From: Octopus sinensis
Taxonomy: Eukaryota
Assembly (NCBI RefSeq): GCF_006345805.1
Contig: NC_043005.1
Location: 57,102,001 to 57,166,000, forward strand
Direction of reading: 5' to 3'
DNA length: 64,000 nt
Position numbers and translations under genes: made by a program. Each line of letters opens with the position of its first letter. Position 1 is the first letter of the stretch. Below are positions 3,363-64,000 of the stretch, in pieces. Below the pieces are notes generated by a model. That model was given only the letters and a program-made list of their open reading frames with translations, was not told where the DNA came from and searched no databases.

Positions 3363-3404
<42 letters not shown>

Positions 3405-3572
3405 TTTCAATATGTGACCGCGTGTGTTTCGTAGGCGATTTTCTTTCACCGTCTTCCCTTCCTTGGACCTTTCATTTTTCTATGTTTCTGACGAAGAGCT
3501 CCGCTAGAAACGTTAAATCATCCTGCTTTCTTTCCTCGCGTTGTTGTGTTTTCTCTTTGTTGATGTTTGGAT

Positions 3573-3622
<50 letters not shown>

Positions 3623-11000: not shown

Positions 11001-11039
11001 TATATATATATACAAATATATATATATATTATATACACC

Positions 11040-14400
<3,361 letters not shown>

Positions 14401-15317: not shown

Positions 15318-15610
15318 CTACTTGACTGTATAATAGATTAACTGTTGTCCTTTTCTTCCATACTGATGACCTACAAGATGTAGAAACAGTCTGTCTGTAG
15401 ATGTAGGGTCACTACTTGATTGTATAAAAGAGTAACTATTGTCCTTTTCTTCTATACTGATGACCTACAAGATGTAGAAACAGTCTGTCTGTAGATGTAG
15501 GACAAATATTAAATAAGAAATGTATAAACAATATAACATTATTGTCTTTTTATTCCATACTGATAACCTATAAGATTCAGATATAGTCTGTCTATAGATG
15601 GAGGACAATT
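15318..15610 (+). ncRNA. Tandem hammerhead-like units (period 94 then 103 bp; third unit decayed)
   Basis: CTGATGA at 15363 and 15457; ttgtcct..tctata CTGATGA cc TACA aga TGTA GAAA CAgtcTGT C tgtaga..aggacaa; stem II junction non-canonical. Confidence 0.65.
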
Positions 15611-18715: not shown

Positions 18716-19093
18716 TCTTTATATATAAAAGTGAGGTTGTGTGCTGTTTATCTCCTACGATTTAGATTCCTAGCTACTCCCACATTTTGCGGTGCAGTTT
18801 AACCAAAACTGGGTATCTTATAGTCGTGATTCATATAGAGCCCTTCTGGGTATTAGCGCGCGTCTACGATGAGTCTACGATTTAAAAAAAAAATTACCAT
18901 CAATTTTTCACATTTTTAATGCATTTTTGGCATATATAAGGGAAGTAAGTCTCTAAAAACGTAAAAAGCTACAGTAATACAACCCCCCTTTGTGGTTAGC
19001 CATATTGAGATGGCTATTATACTTTACATCTCTAAAAATGCTTATATAGTTATTTCCCTTACAAACCCGAGCAACGCCGGGCGATACTGTTAG
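18716..19093 (+). mobile_element. Non-autonomous Helitron
   Basis: 5' TCTTTATATATAAAA; 3' hairpin CCCGAGCAACGCCGGG then TTAG (decayed CTAG); inserted between A and T. Confidence 0.75.
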
Positions 19094-19369
19094 TTAGAGA
19101 TAAAACCACTATTAGGCAAATCAAACAGTGAAAAACATAAACCAATACATAAAAATAAATATAATTGATATAATATACAAAATATATAAAATATAAAATT
19201 TAAAATTTAAATTATTTAAATTTAAAATTTAAAATTTATATTTATAATTTTTTTTTTAAATATATATAACTATCAAAAAGTATTAAAAAGTTTAATATAA
19301 GATAAAAAGTAATATATATAAAGTAATAAGTATATAAGATAATAAGTAATATATATATAAAGTAAAAAG

Positions 19370-19625
19370 TAAAAAGTAAAAGAGTCAAAAGGAAGAGTAA
19401 GTAGCGTTAGGCAGCTTTTTAATTGCTACGGATGTTTTGATACATACACATCCTCGTATATACAGGATTTAAAGTTAAGTTTAAATTAAATTATGTAGCG
19501 ATTTACTTGTATAACTTTAAATCCTGTATATACGAAGATCTGTATGTATCGAAACATTTGTAGCGATTAAAAAGCTGCCTAACCGTACTTACTCGTCCTT
19601 TTGACTCTTTTACTTTTCTTTTACT
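19370..19625. repeat. Long imperfect inverted repeat (~110-bp arms)
   Basis: AAAAGAGTCAAAAGG...GGATTTAAAGTTA versus TAACTTTAAATCC...CCTTTTGACTCTTTT. Confidence 0.85.
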
Positions 19626-19764
19626 TTGTATTTTCACACGCGAGGAATACCTAAGACTAGAATTGGCTGCATACCATAAGAATACTACCGGCTATTTGGG
19701 AATTCTAAGGGTGAACGAGATCTATTTGTACTCATATACGTTCTTAACAGAACACACTTCAACT

Positions 19765-19929: not shown

Positions 19930-20018
19930 GTTAATCCAAACAAGAAAGCACAAAAAAACACAATAACGCGAGGACGTGGAACAATATAGTATTATTGGAC
20001 GCTCAGGAAAGAAGGAGG

Positions 20019-20053
20019 GTTTAACGCTTCGAGCGGATCTCTTCGTCGGAAAC
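20019..20053 (-). ncRNA. Decayed hammerhead motif in module 19926-20093
   Basis: Same family as 3484 and 56686; minus strand gttt CCGACGA AGAGATCCGCTC GAAGCGTT aaac. Confidence 0.5.
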
Positions 20054-20091
20054 ATAGGAGAAGGAAAGATCCAGAGAAGGGAAGACAGAGG

Positions 20092-41165: not shown

Positions 41166-42195
41166 CATAAACGCACCAGCACCGGTTGTTAAGCGGTGAT
41201 GGGATACACACACACACATATATCCATATATACATGCGTACAACGGGCTTCTTTTAGTTTCCATCTACCAAATCTACTCTGACGGCTTTGGTCGGCCCGG
41301 GGCTAAAGTAGAAGACACTTGCCCAAAGTAGCATGCAGTAGGACTGCATGGTACCTTGCAGATAGATCTATCTGGTGTTTGTTGTAACTTAGATAAGAAA
41401 CTAGGAACTCACCGCCTTCTGGAAAACCAAGGGTAGCTTTCTGAAAGAAATATAAAATTTGAGGGGGAGATAATTTCACTGGAATATGTTCTGATGATTT
41501 TATTTTATTCAAAGCCTATCTTTTCCACTAATTAGGAAATTGAGAAGCAAGTATTTTTGTTTCTTAATCTACACTTGTAATTACGTTTTAAAAATGTAAA
41601 TATAAACTGTGGTCTATCACAAGTATTCAGCTGTCATAATGTGCATCCTTTTAGAGAGGGCCTTGGACACTATTTTAAAGAACAGTTAGGCAAGATAAAG
41701 TAAAAGTTGCTTTAAAAATTTAGGTTGGCTGTTAAAATTTGTTTCCATTTAGTTAGGGTTTTATAAATGATTATATTTTTTAATAAAAATAACATAATAG
41801 GCTGTGTGGTAAGTAGCTTGCTTACCAACCCCATGGTTCCAGGTTCAGTCCCACTGCGTGGCACCTTGGGCAAGTGTCTTCTACTATAGCCGCGGGCCGA
41901 CCAATGCCTTGTGAGTGGATTTGATAGACGGAAACTGAAAGAAGCTCGTCGTATATATGTATGTGTGTGTGTATATGTTTGTGTGTCTGTGTTTGTCCTC
42001 CCCAACATCGCTTGACAACCGAAGCTGGTGTGTTTACCTCCCCGTAACTTAGCAGTTCGGCAAAAGAGTCCGGCAGAATAAGTACTAAGCTTACAAAGAA
42101 TAAGTCCTGGGGTCGATTTGCTCAACTAAAGGCGGTGCTCCAGTATGGCCACAGTCAAATGACTGAAACAAGTAAAAGAGTAGAGAGAGTAAAAG
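41135..42195. mobile_element. Microsatellite SINE copies (- 41135-41350; + 41800-42195)
   Basis: Family match; 3' tail CAGTCAAATGACTGAAAC. Confidence 0.85.
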
Positions 42196-43332
42196 AGTAG
42201 AGATTAAGTAGTTTACAATATTTGTTAATACAACCTTGTCAAATGGCAATTAATTTCAATGCGGCTTTCTAACATAAAACGGTCCCTTGATACTGTATTT
42301 TTATATCCATCAGTAATTTTTAAGTTTTTGTGATTTTAGATGATACTAATCGCCACTAGACCATGATTTTTAGACCAAGAGGTTATTCGTGCATAGTTCA
42401 ACGTTTAAATAACGACAGTAGTATCATCATATCAAGATTGCACAACGAGAAGTGTAAAAGCCTGGTTTATGCTCAACACGGACAAGTAACGTTTACTTAG
42501 ACTGTGCATGAGGAATACTCATCGAGTAAAGGTTTCTCAGAACAAACATGAACTCATTGAAAAGACTGATTGATAGACTCGAACTAGATTCAAGTATTTA
42601 CAGCTTTTACTCCATAAATCTTCTAAAGAGCAAGAAACAAACAAACAAAAAATACTGATATACTGTACTAAAGTGTGTATATTTTCTTTAGCAATTCTCT
42701 GACTTCACATCGGGATTTTTGTTCACGAGAAATTGCGAGAATTTGCTAGTGTTACCCCAGGAACACCTACTTGCGAGAATTCTCTACTATTATCCTAGGA
42801 ACACCTACGAAACACTCTGATCATGAACGTTCCTTTTACCATTAATTATATATTACAGTTCATTTTATTTACACTCCAGAATCTGTAAGATATTGGCATG
42901 TCGCACTATTTTTTAATGACTCATTCAGTATTCCTGTATTCTGCAGCAGCGTACCATCTTGTCGATAATATTTCTAATTCAAGGTTTCCAGTTTCCAACC
43001 TTATTACCTGTTTGTATCATATTCTAATCAATATCACAGGTCAACAAGTAATTTTTCATCAGAGGTAATTTTATGATTATTTAAGCTATCATTTTTTTTT
43101 TCGCACTAGTTCTGCAGCTAATCTTTTTTCAACGATATATATATATATAAATATATAATAAATATTAGGGAATAAATCCAAATTTACAGGGAAAAATCAG
43201 ATTTAGGATTGAATCCAATTTTATAGTAAAATATTATATAATATTAATTAGAGACAAATTGATAAATTTATATTATTTATAGTTTTAGCCATTTTAAGTT
43301 TATTTTTTAGAATATTGATATTTTTAGATATG

Positions 43333-43386
43333 AAATCCACCTGATGAATGTCATTTGAAGACAGGAAACAATTGTAGTGGCGATTT
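43333..43386 (+). ncRNA. Hammerhead ribozyme in module 43160-43470
   Basis: aaat-ccac CTGATGA a TGTC atttgaa GACA g GAAA CAATTGT A gtgg-cgattt; stem III palindrome ACAATTGT; closing pair of stem II mismatched. Confidence 0.8.
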
Positions 43387-43486
43387 ATTTACTTTATATT
43401 AAAATTTTTTTATGTATTGATTAAGTCTTTCCTTGTTTGATTTGCAAAATAGTGGTTTTGTCTCTAATTAATATTATATGTATATA

Positions 43487-43651
43487 TATAGCATATGTTT
43501 TGTTTGAACCTGTCATTCTGCCCGTAGTAACATCAACTTCAGCAATGTTTATTTGTACTGAAGCATAATCTTTGGTAGCAATAATGCTATTACTGGCTGA
43601 ACATTTCCTTGGGATATACATATCCACGAATTCACCTGCTTCGTTCTGCAT
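43487..43651 (-). pseudogene. RPS21: 40S ribosomal protein S21 retrocopy, 3'-truncated
   Basis: [55 protein letters not shown]: 55 uninterrupted codons, then (TA)n. Confidence 0.93.
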
Positions 43652-43735
43652 AATCCTTTCTTTATTCTAAGAAAATCTTAGTTAAAATGGACGTCCATTT
43701 TAACTAAGATTTTCTTAGAATAAAGAAAGGATTAT
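43650..43735. repeat. Perfect 86-bp spacerless palindrome
   Basis: ATAATCCTTTC...AAAATGGAC|GTCCATTTT...GAAAGGATTAT. Confidence 0.95.
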
Positions 43736-43999
43736 ATATATATATATATATATGGAAAGAAGGGGAAAAGAGAATGAGAAAGAGAGAATAAGTGCTAAGT
43801 TAAGGCTTAATCATAATTAAGAGGGGTTGTAGAGACTTTATGTAATGGGCAAAAGTTTCTCTTATAGCCACTCTTTACCCCGTGGACCTAGTCCTCAATA
43901 AAGATTTCAGAGTTCAAATCATTCGAGCACTACTGCGTGTTTTCTATTCTGAGCATCTTTACCCCTCCTTAATATGCATACGCGCGCACGCACACTAAC

Positions 44000-44118
<119 letters not shown>

Positions 44119-44269
44119 AATCTTTCTGTCTGTCTGTATGTATACAGACAAATACATACATACATACATACATACATACATACATACATACATACATACA
44201 TACATACATACATACATACATACATACATACATACATACTGCTTCGAAACCTTCAGCTTCTATATCTAG

Positions 44270-44450
44270 ACTATGAATTCATATTCATACCAATAATAAT
44301 TGGAGCACTAGGCTTTGTTAATAAATGCTTAAAGGAGAATCTGGATAAACTGGGATTTTCAGGAAGAGAAATCGACCGGCCGATTCGTACAAGTGCAATC
44401 TGTGAGTGGAACAGTAAAAGTTTGCAAGACGTTTCTTAAGTTATAAATGT
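44270..44450 (+). mobile_element. RLE LINE C-terminal fragment
   Basis: FIFIPIIIGALGFVNKCLKENLDKLGF. Confidence 0.55.
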
Positions 44451-45339
44451 GAATTTGTCTGTGTTAACTACATCCCAAAGATTCAGTTTTGTAGATTCAG
44501 TTTTGACTGGGACTTTAATTTGCGCTCGATAGTTTATTCAGCCAGTAGAGATAACTTGCATTTATAATGATTCTAACTTGGTTAACTTGAAACAAAACAT
44601 AAATGGCTACAAGCATTTGGACCAGAACTCTGTGCCGTCTGAGCTTACTTTCTTTCCTTTAGTCGCTGCTGGAAGACTTGGGAAAGGTAATAGGTGCTCT
44701 CCTTTCTCACCTAATTAAGTCAGGCGCCTACAAAAACAAACACAAAAGAAAAAATAGCAGGTTGTGTGTTTTCAACAAAGAGTGCTCAAGATGAATTTGC
44801 GCCAAAGTATCCAGCATTAAGTGTAACTACTACATGTCAAACGTGTTAATAATTAGCTAAGAGACGAACTCATCATTGGCCTTTGTTATTTCAAATTGGA
44901 GACCTGCCTTTTCGGTTGAGGGAGGTTTCTAATAACTGGAAATGCTATTGTCTTTGTCCATGTATATGTTTGTATGAGTAGATGTGTATATCTATCTATG
45001 TGTGTGTATGTGTGTGTGTATGCACGTGTGTGGCTAAGTTTTTGTGTGTGTGTGTGGGGGGGGCCAAGTGTGTGTGTGTGTGCGTGTGCAGGTGTGAGTA
45101 TGTATATGTATCTGTGTGTATACGTGTGCATGTGATCATGTATGTGTGTGTGCGCGTGTGTATGTGTATGTATATCTGTGTGCATGTTGTTGCGTGAGCG
45201 TGTATATGTGCATGTCTATGTGCGTATGTTTCAACATGTATGTGTGTCTAAGTGCATGTGTCTAAGTGCGTATGGCTATGTGTGTGTATATATGTGTGTG
45301 TCTGTGTGTGTTTGTGTGTATATGAGTGTGTGTGTGGCG

Positions 45340-52945: not shown

Positions 52946-52997
<52 letters not shown>

Positions 52998-53075: not shown

Positions 53076-53149
53076 GGTTTTATGAGATTACCCTGGGTTT
53101 CACGTCCATAACGCGCTTAGCATTACAGTGTATCGTCAGATCCCTAACC
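53076..53149 (-). ncRNA. Hammerhead ribozyme
   Basis: Minus strand: ggtt-agggat CTGACGA t ac..tgtaatgc/gcgttatg..gt GAAA CCCaGGGT A atctc..aacc. Confidence 0.75.
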
Positions 53150-53458
53150 TGTTGGTTTATGACCTCTCTAGCAAGTGGCCTCTCCAGAAAATAGAGGAAG
53201 AAAAGACTTCGTTACTTTATGTCAATCACAAAGGATTGTCTCCCTCTGGCTGTCAATTGTAAATGACCATTATCGCGTGGATCCCAGTAGGCCAGCAGGA
53301 ATTTCCTGAAATGCAAGTATGGTCTGAAGACCTCCGTTATGGAGTTAAGGATGTTCTCGGTTCGAGGGACTCCTTTACTATCCCCGCCCGCTCAGCTATG
53401 CACAGTTTACAACGCTTAATCCCGTCTATGTAGGAACCTAGATTTTCTAGGATTCTCC

Positions 53459-53795
53459 ATGATATTACGTGCGCTATTTCGGTCGTCCTTCAATGATGAT
53501 GACCACAACAACAGTACCATTCCCAACGCCAGTAGTAGCCGCACCAAAACCATCGCCACCTCCAGTGACACCTACACTAACAGCACCAGTACCGACAGCA
53601 GCAGTAGTAGCTGCGTCAACACCAGCAGATTCAATATTGCCGACACCCGAACACGGAGATACATCGGATGCTCTGGTAACACATTCAAGCAACGCTTCTC
53701 CAACCACAGCTCTTCCTTCAGGATACCGGAAACGAGATACATTACGTCATTAACTAGCCATGTATAGCAACCGAAGGACGACTGCATTTAAAAGA
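53459..53795 (+). pseudogene. Penelope-type GIY-YIG endonuclease fragment with S/T/N-rich leader
   Basis: RYIGCSGNTFKQRFSNHSSSFR.....TSLTSHV*. Confidence 0.75.
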
Positions 53796-55846: not shown

Positions 55847-56685
55847 AGTGACGTATATGGAGTTTTATGCTGGTTGGGGTATAGAGATCTGTGTGGAAGC
55901 GTATTCGCAAGTATAAATAAATGAGTGTCAGTGTGTCTATATGTATATGTGTTAATACAAATGTTTGTAGAAGTCAACGTGTTGAATAATATATAATATT
56001 AGGGAATAGATATAATTTGCAGTCTCTGAATAAAATGCATATGCACGTGCACCCCACTCAAATCCTTCCTTCTTAACCTACTTCCTTTCAATGATTATAA
56101 ACGGGGTGAGTTATCTCAGTTGTCTGTTATACCCTATTCCCTTACAGCCTCCAGGGTTGATAAGATATATACGTGTGTGTGTGTATGTGTGTGTGTGTGA
56201 GACTGTGTGTGCGTGCGTGTGAACACATATACACATAAATTCATAGCTTTATATACATACACATGTATACAGACATTTGTGTGTGTGTGTATATACATAT
56301 ATGTATATACGCATATATATACACATCTCCGCCTCTCTATACACACATACATACGCACACGGGGATAGATACCCGCAAACATACGTATATAAGTTATTTG
56401 CAGTTAGTTGTCATGTGATCACGTAATGGACAATGTTTTCTCGTTTAGTTTTGCTTTCTTTTATTTTGCTCTTGTGTGCCGCGGTCTTATTTGATCATGT
56501 TTTGTCTAGCTTTATCCACCCGTCCCCGACACACATAATCACAATACACCGGCTTGCGGCACACAAAACTGACATACACTAACAACAAGACTTACATACA
56601 CACATACACACAGCAGCCGACACGCACACAAGTTCTCGAGCACCACCAGCAAAAATATTTTTTTCCTCTGTCTTCCCTTCTCCTT

Positions 56686-56720
56686 GTTTCCGACGAAGAG
56701 CTCCGCTCGAAACGTTAAAC
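56686..56720 (+). ncRNA. Minimal hammerhead motif (CCGACGA variant) in module 56660-56823
   Basis: gttt CCGACGA A GAGC tcc GCTC GAAA CGT T aaac; stems I and II fully paired. Confidence 0.7.
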
Positions 56721-56823
56721 CCTCCTTCCCTTCTTTCCTGAGCGTCAAATAATACTTTAATTGTTCCACGTCTTCGCGTTGCTGTGTTTTTTTCTGTGTT
56801 TTCTTGTTTGGATTAACTTTAAC

Positions 56824-60849: not shown

Positions 60850-60907
<58 letters not shown>

Positions 60908-60908
<1 letters not shown>

Positions 60909-61650
60909 TAGCAGTACCGCCCGGCGTTGCTCGGGTTTGTAAGGGAAATAACTATAAAGCATTTTTAGAGAGTTATAGCCAAAAAATGGGGAAAAAATTA
61001 TGGTAAATTTTTTTAGTTAAAAAGGTCGAGTTGCGTCCCCTAGACAGTCTGTGGTTTGTGTTTCTAATTCTCGACCCCATGTCGAATTTATCGATTTTTT
61101 TCAGAACTGGGGGAACTTTTCAAAATTTTCGCTGCGTTAGTTTTGAATTATGACATTGGGCTATGTGTGTGTCAAGTTTCATCAGAATCGGTTGAAAGCC
61201 GTGGTCAGGGTGAGGGTACAACCTAACAGACACACAGAAACACACACAGACAAACTGCCGTTTATATATAGACTAGCAGTATCGCCCGGCGTTGCTCAGG
61301 TTTGTAAGGGAAATAACTATAAAGCATTTTTAGAGAGTTATAGCCAAAAAATTGCAAAAAAATGGAAAAAAATGATGGTAAATTTTTTTTTAGTTAAAAA
61401 AGGTGGAGTTGCGTCCCCTAGACAATTTGCGGTTTGTGTTTCTGATTCTCGACCCCATGTCGAATTTATCGATATTTTTCAGAACTGGGGGAACTTTTAA
61501 AAATTTTCGCTGCGTTTGTTTTGAATTATGACATTGGGCTATGTGTGTGTCAAGTTTCATCAGAATCGGTTGAAAGCCGTGGTCAGGGTGAGGGTACAAG
61601 CAAACAGACACACAGAAACACGCACAGACAAACTGCCGTTTATATATAGA
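60908..61650 (-). mobile_element. Head-to-tail dimer of a non-autonomous Helitron (60908-61272, 61273-61650)
   Basis: Minus strand: 5' TCTATATATAAA, 3' CCCGAGCAACGCCGGG hairpin + CTAG; junction CTAG|TC. Confidence 0.85.
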
Positions 61651-62803: not shown

Positions 62804-64000
62804 GTGTACGTGTGTGCGTTTGATCGTTCGGCTGTCAGTGGCTACTGCCGAGAGAACCGTTGGGTGGCAGAAAGAAAAAAAAAAATATATATTATGTTTT
62901 ATGTGTGTGTGTGTTCATCTAAGCCTGCCTTGTCAAGGAAACCCCCCGCTGTGAAAAAACCAAGCCCCGTTTGTCTTACAGGAGTAATTCCCCTTGCAGT
63001 GGTTAATCGTAGATATCTTAAAGGCTATTTCAGAATTTGTTACCAAGGGCTATGGGTGCCGGTATTATTTATAAATAGGGGTGTTGTGGTTGACGGTAAC
63101 AATGGGAGTAGGGTAGTGAGCCCCAATAGCATCCCCAGCATCATTTCCCGCAATAGCAGCACCACGGGCAGTAGCAATGACAGCACTCTGATAGATAGTG
63201 GAGAATCAGGGGTTATTCCTATAGTTAATAGTGACGTAGTGGAAAATAGAGTAGTAAGCGGCTGCAGGTCTCGGAACGAATATAGTGACAGGAACGCAGT
63301 TCTAATTTCAGAAACTAATCCTAGCAGAATAAGATTCACGTCGGCGAACTCCAAGATCAAAAACGCCGTCTACCAATGCAAGGTTTACACGGACTCAGAT
63401 GTCTTCACTTATGTAGGGGCATCATCCTCAAGATTGTCTTTGCGTGTCTCCAACCATTACGCAACTTTTCGGGACATGAACAAGCGCCAGACCACGGGAC
63501 TCAGTAAGCTAATATGGCGACTGAAGGATACGAACTTAAGCTATAGGCTGGAATGGTCAATTTTGTCGGTGGCCCTCCCATTGATAGGGGCAGAAGACAG
63601 TGCAACCTTTGTGTCTCCGAACTCTTCCATATTTTGTTTGCCAGAGGCCGGATGGTAAACGGGCTCTTACAGTCGGCTCTTCGATGCCCCCATTGGCGGC
63701 GTTACACTTATCTGGCTTTTAAATAGCGTTTATAAATAATACCGGCACCCATAGCCCTTGGTAACAAATTCTGAAATAGCCTTTAAGATATCTACGATTA
63801 ACCACTGCAAGGGGAATTACTCCTGTAAGACAAACGGGGCTTGGTTTTTTCACAGCGGGGGGTTTCCTTGACAAGGCAGGCTTAGATGAACACACACACA
63901 CATAAAACATAATATATATATATTTTTTTCTTTCTGCCACCCAACGGTTCTCTCGGCAGTTGCCACTGACAGCCGAACGATCAAACGCACACACGTACAC
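62804..64000. repeat. Inverted repeat arms 62804-63075 / 63729-64000 (inverted pLTR-like; runs off the window)
   Basis: Near-identical 272-bp reverse complement, also visible as twin ORFs in the track. Confidence 0.92.
63076..63726 (+). pseudogene. Penelope-type GIY-YIG endonuclease, one frameshift near 63580
   Basis: NAVYQC..TYVGASSSRLSLRVSNHYATF..TGLSKLIWRLKD....EWSIL, then shifted frame RQCNLCVSELFHI...VN......RCPH, stop at 63724-63726. Confidence 0.85.

Follow-up and report, generated by a model that had tools for sequence, protein, structure and literature searches.

EN+ PLE insertions hold an inverted, 5'-truncated copy and a tail (Craig et al. 2021, PMC8557442; Frangieh et al. 2024, PMC11167929). 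Their arms stand head-to-head with the 3' ends pointing outwards, the target is AT-rich or (TA)n, two internal starts are used and poly(A) is absent; in canonical insertions the tail measures 30-40 nt (PMC8557442, PMC11167929). A hammerhead is found near the 3' end (PMC8557442). Type I minimal hammerheads of metazoan PLEs have a CUGANGA/GAAA core and a short helix III with a palindromic loop, and occur singly, dispersed, in truncated elements (Cervera and de la Pena 2014, PMC4209133). Cleavage and extension of both strands have been shown for a purified PLE protein, which favours AT-rich DNA and starts internally at two RNA sites; in vitro it depended on a binding region in its own RNA and did not use target homology to initiate (PMC11167929). 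Mobilisation of host sequence by PLEs in trans, with palindromes at inverted junctions, is also known. In Adineta vaga, where Pen3a mobilised an NRPS gene (Arkhipova et al. 2013, PMC3846280), introns are retained in the cargo, pLTRs frame it and the TSD is 8 bp long; self-priming on an antisense template was favoured there.

As a rule, processed pseudogenes are attributed to L1-like LINEs, and poly(A) and 3' ends often serve to recognise them. L1 twin priming normally retains poly(A), and the template is split rather than duplicated. For twin-primed L1 5' inversions, Ostertag and Kazazian reportedly described in 2001 that the inverted 5' segment is not duplicated in the direct segment.

Here we describe an RPS21 unit from the genome of Octopus sinensis, found in a window of 64 kb (the whole stretch of DNA analysed, 64,000 nucleotides). 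Like EN+ PLE insertions, the unit has head-to-head arms with outward 3' ends, a (TA)n target and apparently two internal starts, and it has no poly(A). It differs from them by a host-mRNA template devoid of PLE sequence, by starts 162 nt apart and by a zero spacer. With the Adineta vaga case it shares host sequence apparently moved in trans and a palindrome at the inverted junction; unlike that case, introns seem to have been lost, no pLTR frames the unit and only the 5' part of the gene is present. An intronless copy of an abundant mRNA, two probable primers and inverted segments recall L1 processed pseudogenes and 5' inversions. In contrast with these, poly(A) and the 3' half are missing, the 5' end is complete and (TA)n lies at both ends. 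The reversed polarity relative to L1-type retrocopies, pointed out by an earlier sequence-only reading of the same DNA, is borne out.

The RPS21 fragment, its palindrome and its relatives

The RPS21 ATG is located at 43651 on the minus strand and opens the RPS21 frame. The best protein match of the fragment is P0002 (Octopus RPS21 by its source), with 53 of 55 residues identical (96%). The two changes are A26T and H29Y. Among 48 full-length homologues starting with MQN, Ala26 is kept in 46 and His29 in 43. The fragment matches Pfam PF01249 with an E value of 2e-26. It is most likely a dead pseudogene without function.

At the nucleotide level, region 43488-43692 of the minus strand corresponds to Octopus RPS21, with a 41-nt 5'UTR (43652-43692) followed by intron-free coding sequence c.1-164 (43488-43651). 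The match is to a 302-nt contig, record 30 of run X6. Taken by guess to be RNA, X6 has no depth on the single-copy flanks and low depth only from the right-flank repeat. The contig is ungapped over 43488-43692 with five mismatches. Four are listed (c.76, c.85, c.93 and c.129); the fifth lies within a few bases of one end, which leaves a possible error either in the left overlap or in the precise 5' base. The other end of the contig continues into the missing 3' half, with codons CGKIRQMGES as in P0002. The fragment is colinear with the mature mRNA, as expected of a retrocopy, if X6 is indeed RNA, and the RNA origin proposed from sequence alone gains support. Because mRNA homology stops at c.164 (43488), codon 55 takes its third base from the TA tract. 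A 5-nt overlap (UAUAU) at this left junction was ruled out, since codon 55 is ATT in the RNA contig; the overlap is at most 3 nt.

The last letter of the contig is at 43692, the exact centre of a perfect palindrome. A contig end is not a mapped start site, and contigs cannot reveal where transcription starts. The palindrome spans 43650-43735 (86 bp, 43 + 43 bp, zero spacer). It is the sole perfect inverted repeat other than (TA)n in the 64-kb window with arms of at least 13 bp and a spacer of at most 12, and its chance expectation is about 2e-18. The second arm (43693-43735, plus strand) is the inverted 5'UTR with AT from the start codon; it shares its last 3 nt with the right (TA)n tract (43733-43753), the outer boundary of the unit. 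On the left, a 10-bp (TA)5 tract (43481-43490) separates RPS21 from its neighbour; its last 3 nt (ATA) overlap c.162-164. Where the sequence-only reading had given 55 codons and 43 duplicated upstream bp, the arm is made of 41 nt of 5'UTR plus AT, and the homology ends at c.164. An intronic origin of the arm was also considered, as the UTR stretch ending TTTTCTTAG is acceptor-like, but the RNA contig runs unbroken through it and this origin was rejected. Rfam search over 43634-43765 returned miRNA matches all below the gathering score, which reflect the perfect hairpin only.

Four of 24 listed runs (X1, X3, X4 and X6) were compared over 42960-43960; four insect or termite gut runs (shares 0.13-0.15) were left out. 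The palindrome is present in one of the three DNA-like runs. Record 15 of X3 covers 43650-43721 with no difference and crosses the centre by 29 nt. Its depth is 13.3 against 7.4 for the flank, as expected from both arms being counted. Record 14 of the same run ends at 43679 and overlaps record 15 by 30 nt, a branch that is expected if the second arm ends at 43735. No listed piece of X1 or X4 crosses the centre, in the 76% and 80% of those runs that were read. X3 does not carry the private alleles of the window copy and is therefore unlikely to be the source of the assembly. The presence of the palindrome in this independent run makes an assembly artefact unlikely.

Searches of the 64-kb window by tblastn, using the whole of P0002 or residues 56-83 alone, gave no C-terminal RPS21 piece (best E 0.2), so that the missing 3' part is not nearby on this scale. 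Over 42101-44800, the only A- or T-run of at least 9 nt is T10 at 43092, outside the RPS21 unit. No TSD was found outside the TA tracts; a duplication inside (TA)n would be invisible. The unit therefore has neither the 3' end nor the poly(A) that L1-type copies retain, and the earlier description of an intron-free 5' part with a palindrome and flanking (TA)n stands, with the corrections given above. A 76-residue read-through frame (43421-43651) was taken as a chance frame. It is absent from the protein collection, and no high-identity match covers its added C-terminus among the best 120 of 277 matches.

The positions of the parental introns were read indirectly, from contig ends taken as branch points, using GT..AG rules and an assumed k=31 over the 158 sites of c.3-160. 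Record 8 of X1, which carries the private alleles of the window copy with no difference, ends at 43631. In X4, a contig end is located at 43602 (from_end 27 at 43576), where a from_end value may mean either contig end. Only c.50|51, out of the 158 sites, explains the ends at 43631 and 43602, from opposite sides. For a further contig end in X1, at 43537 (from_end 15 at 43523), c.114|115 is the sole fitting site, on one side. From this indirect evidence, we infer that the parental gene has introns at c.50|51 and c.114|115 that were lost in this copy. We take these two sites to be the intron positions of human RPS21. Search for the human positions in the supplements of PMC1386722 gave no RPS21 match. 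X3 shows no contig breaks at c.50|51 or c.114|115, though its gene copy should give them. An intronless parental gene, which would have undermined the sequence-only reading, is thus not what the X1 and X4 ends point to.

The window copy is not the only intronless RPS21. Besides a window-type copy, X1 has a second intronless one (record 7, 5 differences), and the depth of each is close to that of a single locus. X3 holds only the second type (record 14, 43491-43679, 8 differences), which abuts the palindrome contig, and X4 holds a further intronless variant (record 22). c.76A is common to the window copy and the second copy and is not found in the RNA contig; the window locus may therefore be a later duplicate of the original event. 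Either one event was followed by duplication, or the same start sites were used repeatedly. X3 and the window differ at 2 of 269 flank bases and at 8 of 189 RPS21 bases (Fisher p 0.019), a comparison of sequences that leans towards a location of the X3 copy at another locus. The alleles of X1 record 7, X3 record 14 and X4 record 22 are reticulate with those of the window copy (c.76, c.108), which suggests duplication with conversion or recombination.

The neighbouring hammerhead stub

The module next to RPS21 spans 43151-43479, somewhat more than the 43160-43470 first assigned to it. Its opposite orientation had been correctly seen; the 10-bp TA tract stands between it and RPS21. The module is an inverted-plus-direct unit in itself, bounded on its outer side by a (TA)n tract (43135-43149). 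It starts with a tail of about 72-85 nt, with approximate boundaries (43151-43235, minus strand), longer than the canonical one. This tail extends the 3' end in the inverted arm only. It is followed by an inverted 23-nt copy of the 3' end (43236-43258, minus strand), 100% identical to 43457-43479, and by the direct copy (43259-43479, plus strand), a 5'-truncated copy of a high-copy non-coding PLE-type 3' region. The two arms are 198 nt apart. Summed depth is very high over 43164-43231, and loose ends at 43247 and 43258 lead into the 3' end of the element. Along the stub, summed depth rises by at least two orders of magnitude towards the 3' end. Contigs join the tail to the direct copy at many points, with variable 5' truncation. 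A relative of the direct copy lies at 19084-19165 (82% identity over 82 nt). An inverted copy with a tail, a 5'-truncated direct copy, a hammerhead near the 3' end and dispersed high copy number identify the module as a PLE stub, which fits the EN+ PLE arrangement directly. No RT/EN open reading frame of its own family is linked to it within the 64-kb window. In X3, a multi-copy contig (record 12, 43259-43355) ends exactly at the junction of the inverted and direct arms; either members of the family may share a 5' boundary at position 43259, or X3 may carry the same insertion.

The hammerhead motif (43333-43386, plus strand) is in opposite orientation to RPS21 and follows the type I minimal arrangement. 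Stem I is formed by 43333-43340 and 43377-43386, and stem II by 43349-43352 and 43360-43363. The core motifs CUGAUGA and GAAA are located at 43341-43347 and 43365-43368. Helix III has 2 bp with a palindromic AAUU loop, and a GUA triplet, of the NUH type, is found at 43374-43376. In this copy, the base of stem II has an A-G mismatch. Variants within the motif affect the free core position 43345, position 43364 (G>T, a change carried by other copies that restores the stem II base pair) and position 43383 (A>G). With its CUGANGA/GAAA core, short helix III and single occurrence in a truncated, dispersed element, the motif looks like an ordinary member of the metazoan PLE class, stem II mismatch apart. 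A stem-checked grammar, written after the motif had been seen, gave this one match in the window and none in 60 shuffles. Rfam models did not list a hammerhead at 43333-43386, and in free folding of the monomer the minimum free energy fold is not the ribozyme fold (z 0.94, 0.25 and 0.86).

The module has an element 3' end at a TA tract on either side and is thus complete without RPS21. It is a neighbour in the same TA tract and lies outside the RPS21 template. Neither a pLTR nor a hammerhead is found within the RPS21 unit or framing it, the stub being one-sided, oppositely facing and self-contained. A second hammerhead-bearing stub family is present three times in the window (3402-3576, 19930-20086 and 56685-56817), with a core CTGACGA or CCGACGA followed by GAAAC and a (TA)n tract at every 3' end. 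Of the 34 merged TA runs elsewhere in the window, 5 are touched by such stubs; adjacency is therefore weak evidence on the enzyme that made the RPS21 unit.

Origin of the RPS21 unit

The explanation that we favour, with a probability somewhat under one half (about 0.45), is that a fragment of RPS21 mRNA was copied into (TA)n by a PLE RT/endonuclease acting in trans, through twin priming with run-off of both cDNAs. The template was likely spliced. In this mechanism, the (TA)n target would be nicked on both strands. Within the mRNA, priming would take place at c.164 from the top-strand TA end and at c.2 from the bottom-strand TA end, each time at a UAU, to give two cDNAs. Both cDNAs would extend to the same mRNA 5' end, and their identical ends would be joined head-to-head by an end-to-end template jump or by repair. 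The product would be a spacerless palindrome centred on the mRNA 5' end, without 3' half and without poly(A). By the same mechanism, a separate event in this TA tract would likely have produced the neighbouring stub from its own RNA; there the two cDNAs would have halted at different points, leaving 198 nt between the arms. Thus, run-off of both cDNAs at one RNA end would give a zero spacer, and unequal stops a spacer, as in the module and in the element at 62804-64000.

The unit has the anatomy of the module: two antisense arms start from (TA)n at an internal UAU and meet head-to-head at 43692|43693. As in PLE-type insertions, the arms are inverted with 3' ends outward, and the two starts on the RNA (c.164 and c.2) are internal. 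The stub and a PLE-like element at 62804-64000, which has 272-bp inverted arms (98.9% identical, about 650 nt apart) and runs off the window end, share this head-to-head arrangement. The latter contains a GIY-YIG-like remnant (63344-63595, feature score 0.92; no Pfam match at E 0.01), which shows only that such elements exist in the genome. Both junctions of the RPS21 unit fall at UAU/ATA overlaps. UAU occurs at 8 of 203 positions, so that the chance of both is about 0.16% (0.5% in either phase), a post hoc figure. Initiation without target homology by the purified PLE protein means that these overlaps do not point to PLEs in particular. Two observations speak against PLE authorship: PLE sequence in cis is absent from the unit, and in vitro the protein needed a binding region in its own RNA. 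The PLE capture proposed in the sequence-only reading is thus favoured by the TA junctions and the PLE-like signature, and weakened by the limited value of adjacency and by a TA-flanked LINE in the same window. What the sequences show directly is the anatomy, the mRNA match, the contig end at the centre and the palindrome in a second run; intron loss, priming chemistry, order of events and the enzyme are deduced. The mechanism is drawn from one locus, and from a single locus the enzyme cannot be named.

Another enzyme could have given the same product, if a LINE RT or a repair polymerase patched a break in fragile (TA)n by extending both of its ends on RPS21 mRNA. The LINE (~11030-14086) carries RT and AP-endonuclease domains as well as an (AATC)n tail and has (TA)n on either side, so that a (TA)n target is not specific to PLEs. 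L1 extends both break ends on mRNAs, even on different mRNAs, and in one case without poly(A) (10.1101/2024.12.14.628481). The 3-base overlaps at both junctions suit microhomology priming, and the contacts of PLE stubs with other TA runs indicate that adjacency can be chance. We nevertheless hold this origin to be unlikely, as the 5' segment is fully duplicated, like PLE inverted ends, and both starts are internal, whereas L1 twin priming would normally keep poly(A) and split the template; the 43-nt segment is present here in both orientations. A single cDNA might also have sufficed. Primed at TA by the PLE machinery and extended from c.164 to the 5' end, it would fold back, copy 43 nt of itself from its 3' end and anneal to the far (TA)n. 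This is the hairpin start of the second strand proposed in the sequence-only reading. The predicted anatomy is the same, with identical arms, but arm identity does not discriminate, since the divergence of the coding part would still leave the arms identical in about 12% of cases. Self-priming has been proposed for palindromic inverted junctions of PLEs (PMC3846280), and a 12-bp AT-rich palindrome (63066-63077) is found at the inverted junction of the GIY-YIG element. With an mRNA start a few bases upstream, the centre GGACGTCC could fold into a 4-nt loop on a 2-bp stem. However, a hairpin start needs a loop and the centre has none, and the RNA contig ends at the centre rather than a few bases past it. 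Fold-back seems to us quite unlikely.

A different order of events, in which a full-length retrocopy with a 5' inversion came first and the PLE stub landed later at a TAT near codon 55 with loss of the 3' half, would account for the strand of the stub's right-hand cDNA, which must be primed from the strand reading RPS21 in sense. Abundant ribosomal-protein mRNAs often yield retrocopies, and further intronless RPS21 copies are present in X1, X3 and X4. But the 3' half and poly(A) are absent beyond the stub and throughout the window, a TA tract and not a clean junction separates the stub from RPS21, the intronless copy of X3 also begins at 43491, and the (TA)n end of the right arm is independent of the stub. 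We regard such an older retrocopy as improbable. Still more so would be a palindrome created by assembly error, or a fragment duplicated from an intronless gene. Palindromes beside microsatellites are hard for assemblers, and the intron positions were read indirectly, with no breaks in X3 at the deduced sites. Nevertheless, X3 has a contig over the centre at genomic depth while lacking the window's private alleles, and the X1 and X4 contig ends fit one GT..AG intron to the base. This leaves very little room for either version.

The RPS21 unit is real, and PLE-type twin priming on the mRNA is a plausible mechanism for this one locus. Host-gene mobilisation by PLEs is already known, with introns kept and cargo framed by pLTRs (PMC3846280). 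In the literature searched, most subscription papers being outside its scope, we found none that describes a host mRNA copied in spliced form, without its 3' part and with PLE-type ends. A term search of the text of a preprint (10.64898/2026.07.22.740005) showed no such copy in the portions covered. Tentatively, and with more doubt than confidence, we suggest that PLE-rich genomes hold an unrecognised class of retrocopies, consisting of 5' fragments of spliced host mRNAs that PLE protein wrote into (TA)n, without PLE sequence in cis and with palindrome centres at transcript starts. Being 3'-less, TA-bounded and palindrome-ended, such copies could be overlooked or misassigned. PLE copying of host mRNA from both cut strands would then be a little-noticed route of host-gene copying.

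For the origin of PLE head-to-head ends, antisense self-priming has been proposed (PMC3846280), and two-strand internal initiation is seen in vitro (PMC11167929). A spliced template implies the sense strand, contrary to the antisense template favoured in PMC3846280. In a spliced host mRNA the template strand is given and the 5' end can be mapped, which makes the choice between the two testable. If twin priming is correct, the head-to-head junction arises from two sense-templated cDNAs, and a zero spacer is expected exactly when both arms reach the transcript start. The second-type intronless copy in X3, which abuts the same palindrome with one shared derived base, may mean repeated making from the same start sites or onward copying.

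Other elements of the window

Several further repeats were noted. A second GIY-YIG-like remnant with a YIG motif is located at 53420-53767, in an insertion that begins at (TA)n near 52994 and also holds a hammerhead-like core near 53139 (minus strand). From 15363-15480 and beyond, tandem units 94 bp apart each carry a hammerhead-like core CTGATGA...GAAAC, an array that resembles those of non-LTR retrozymes. An element at 18716-19093, which we take to be Helitron-like, has a TC start and a GC-rich hairpin before its TAG end, and a similar end is found at 60907-60960. It appears to be inserted at the 3' end of the module relative at 19084-19165. Beside this relative, region 19355-19631 forms an imperfect inverted repeat (83%) with a short spacer that may be another decayed PLE head-to-head unit.
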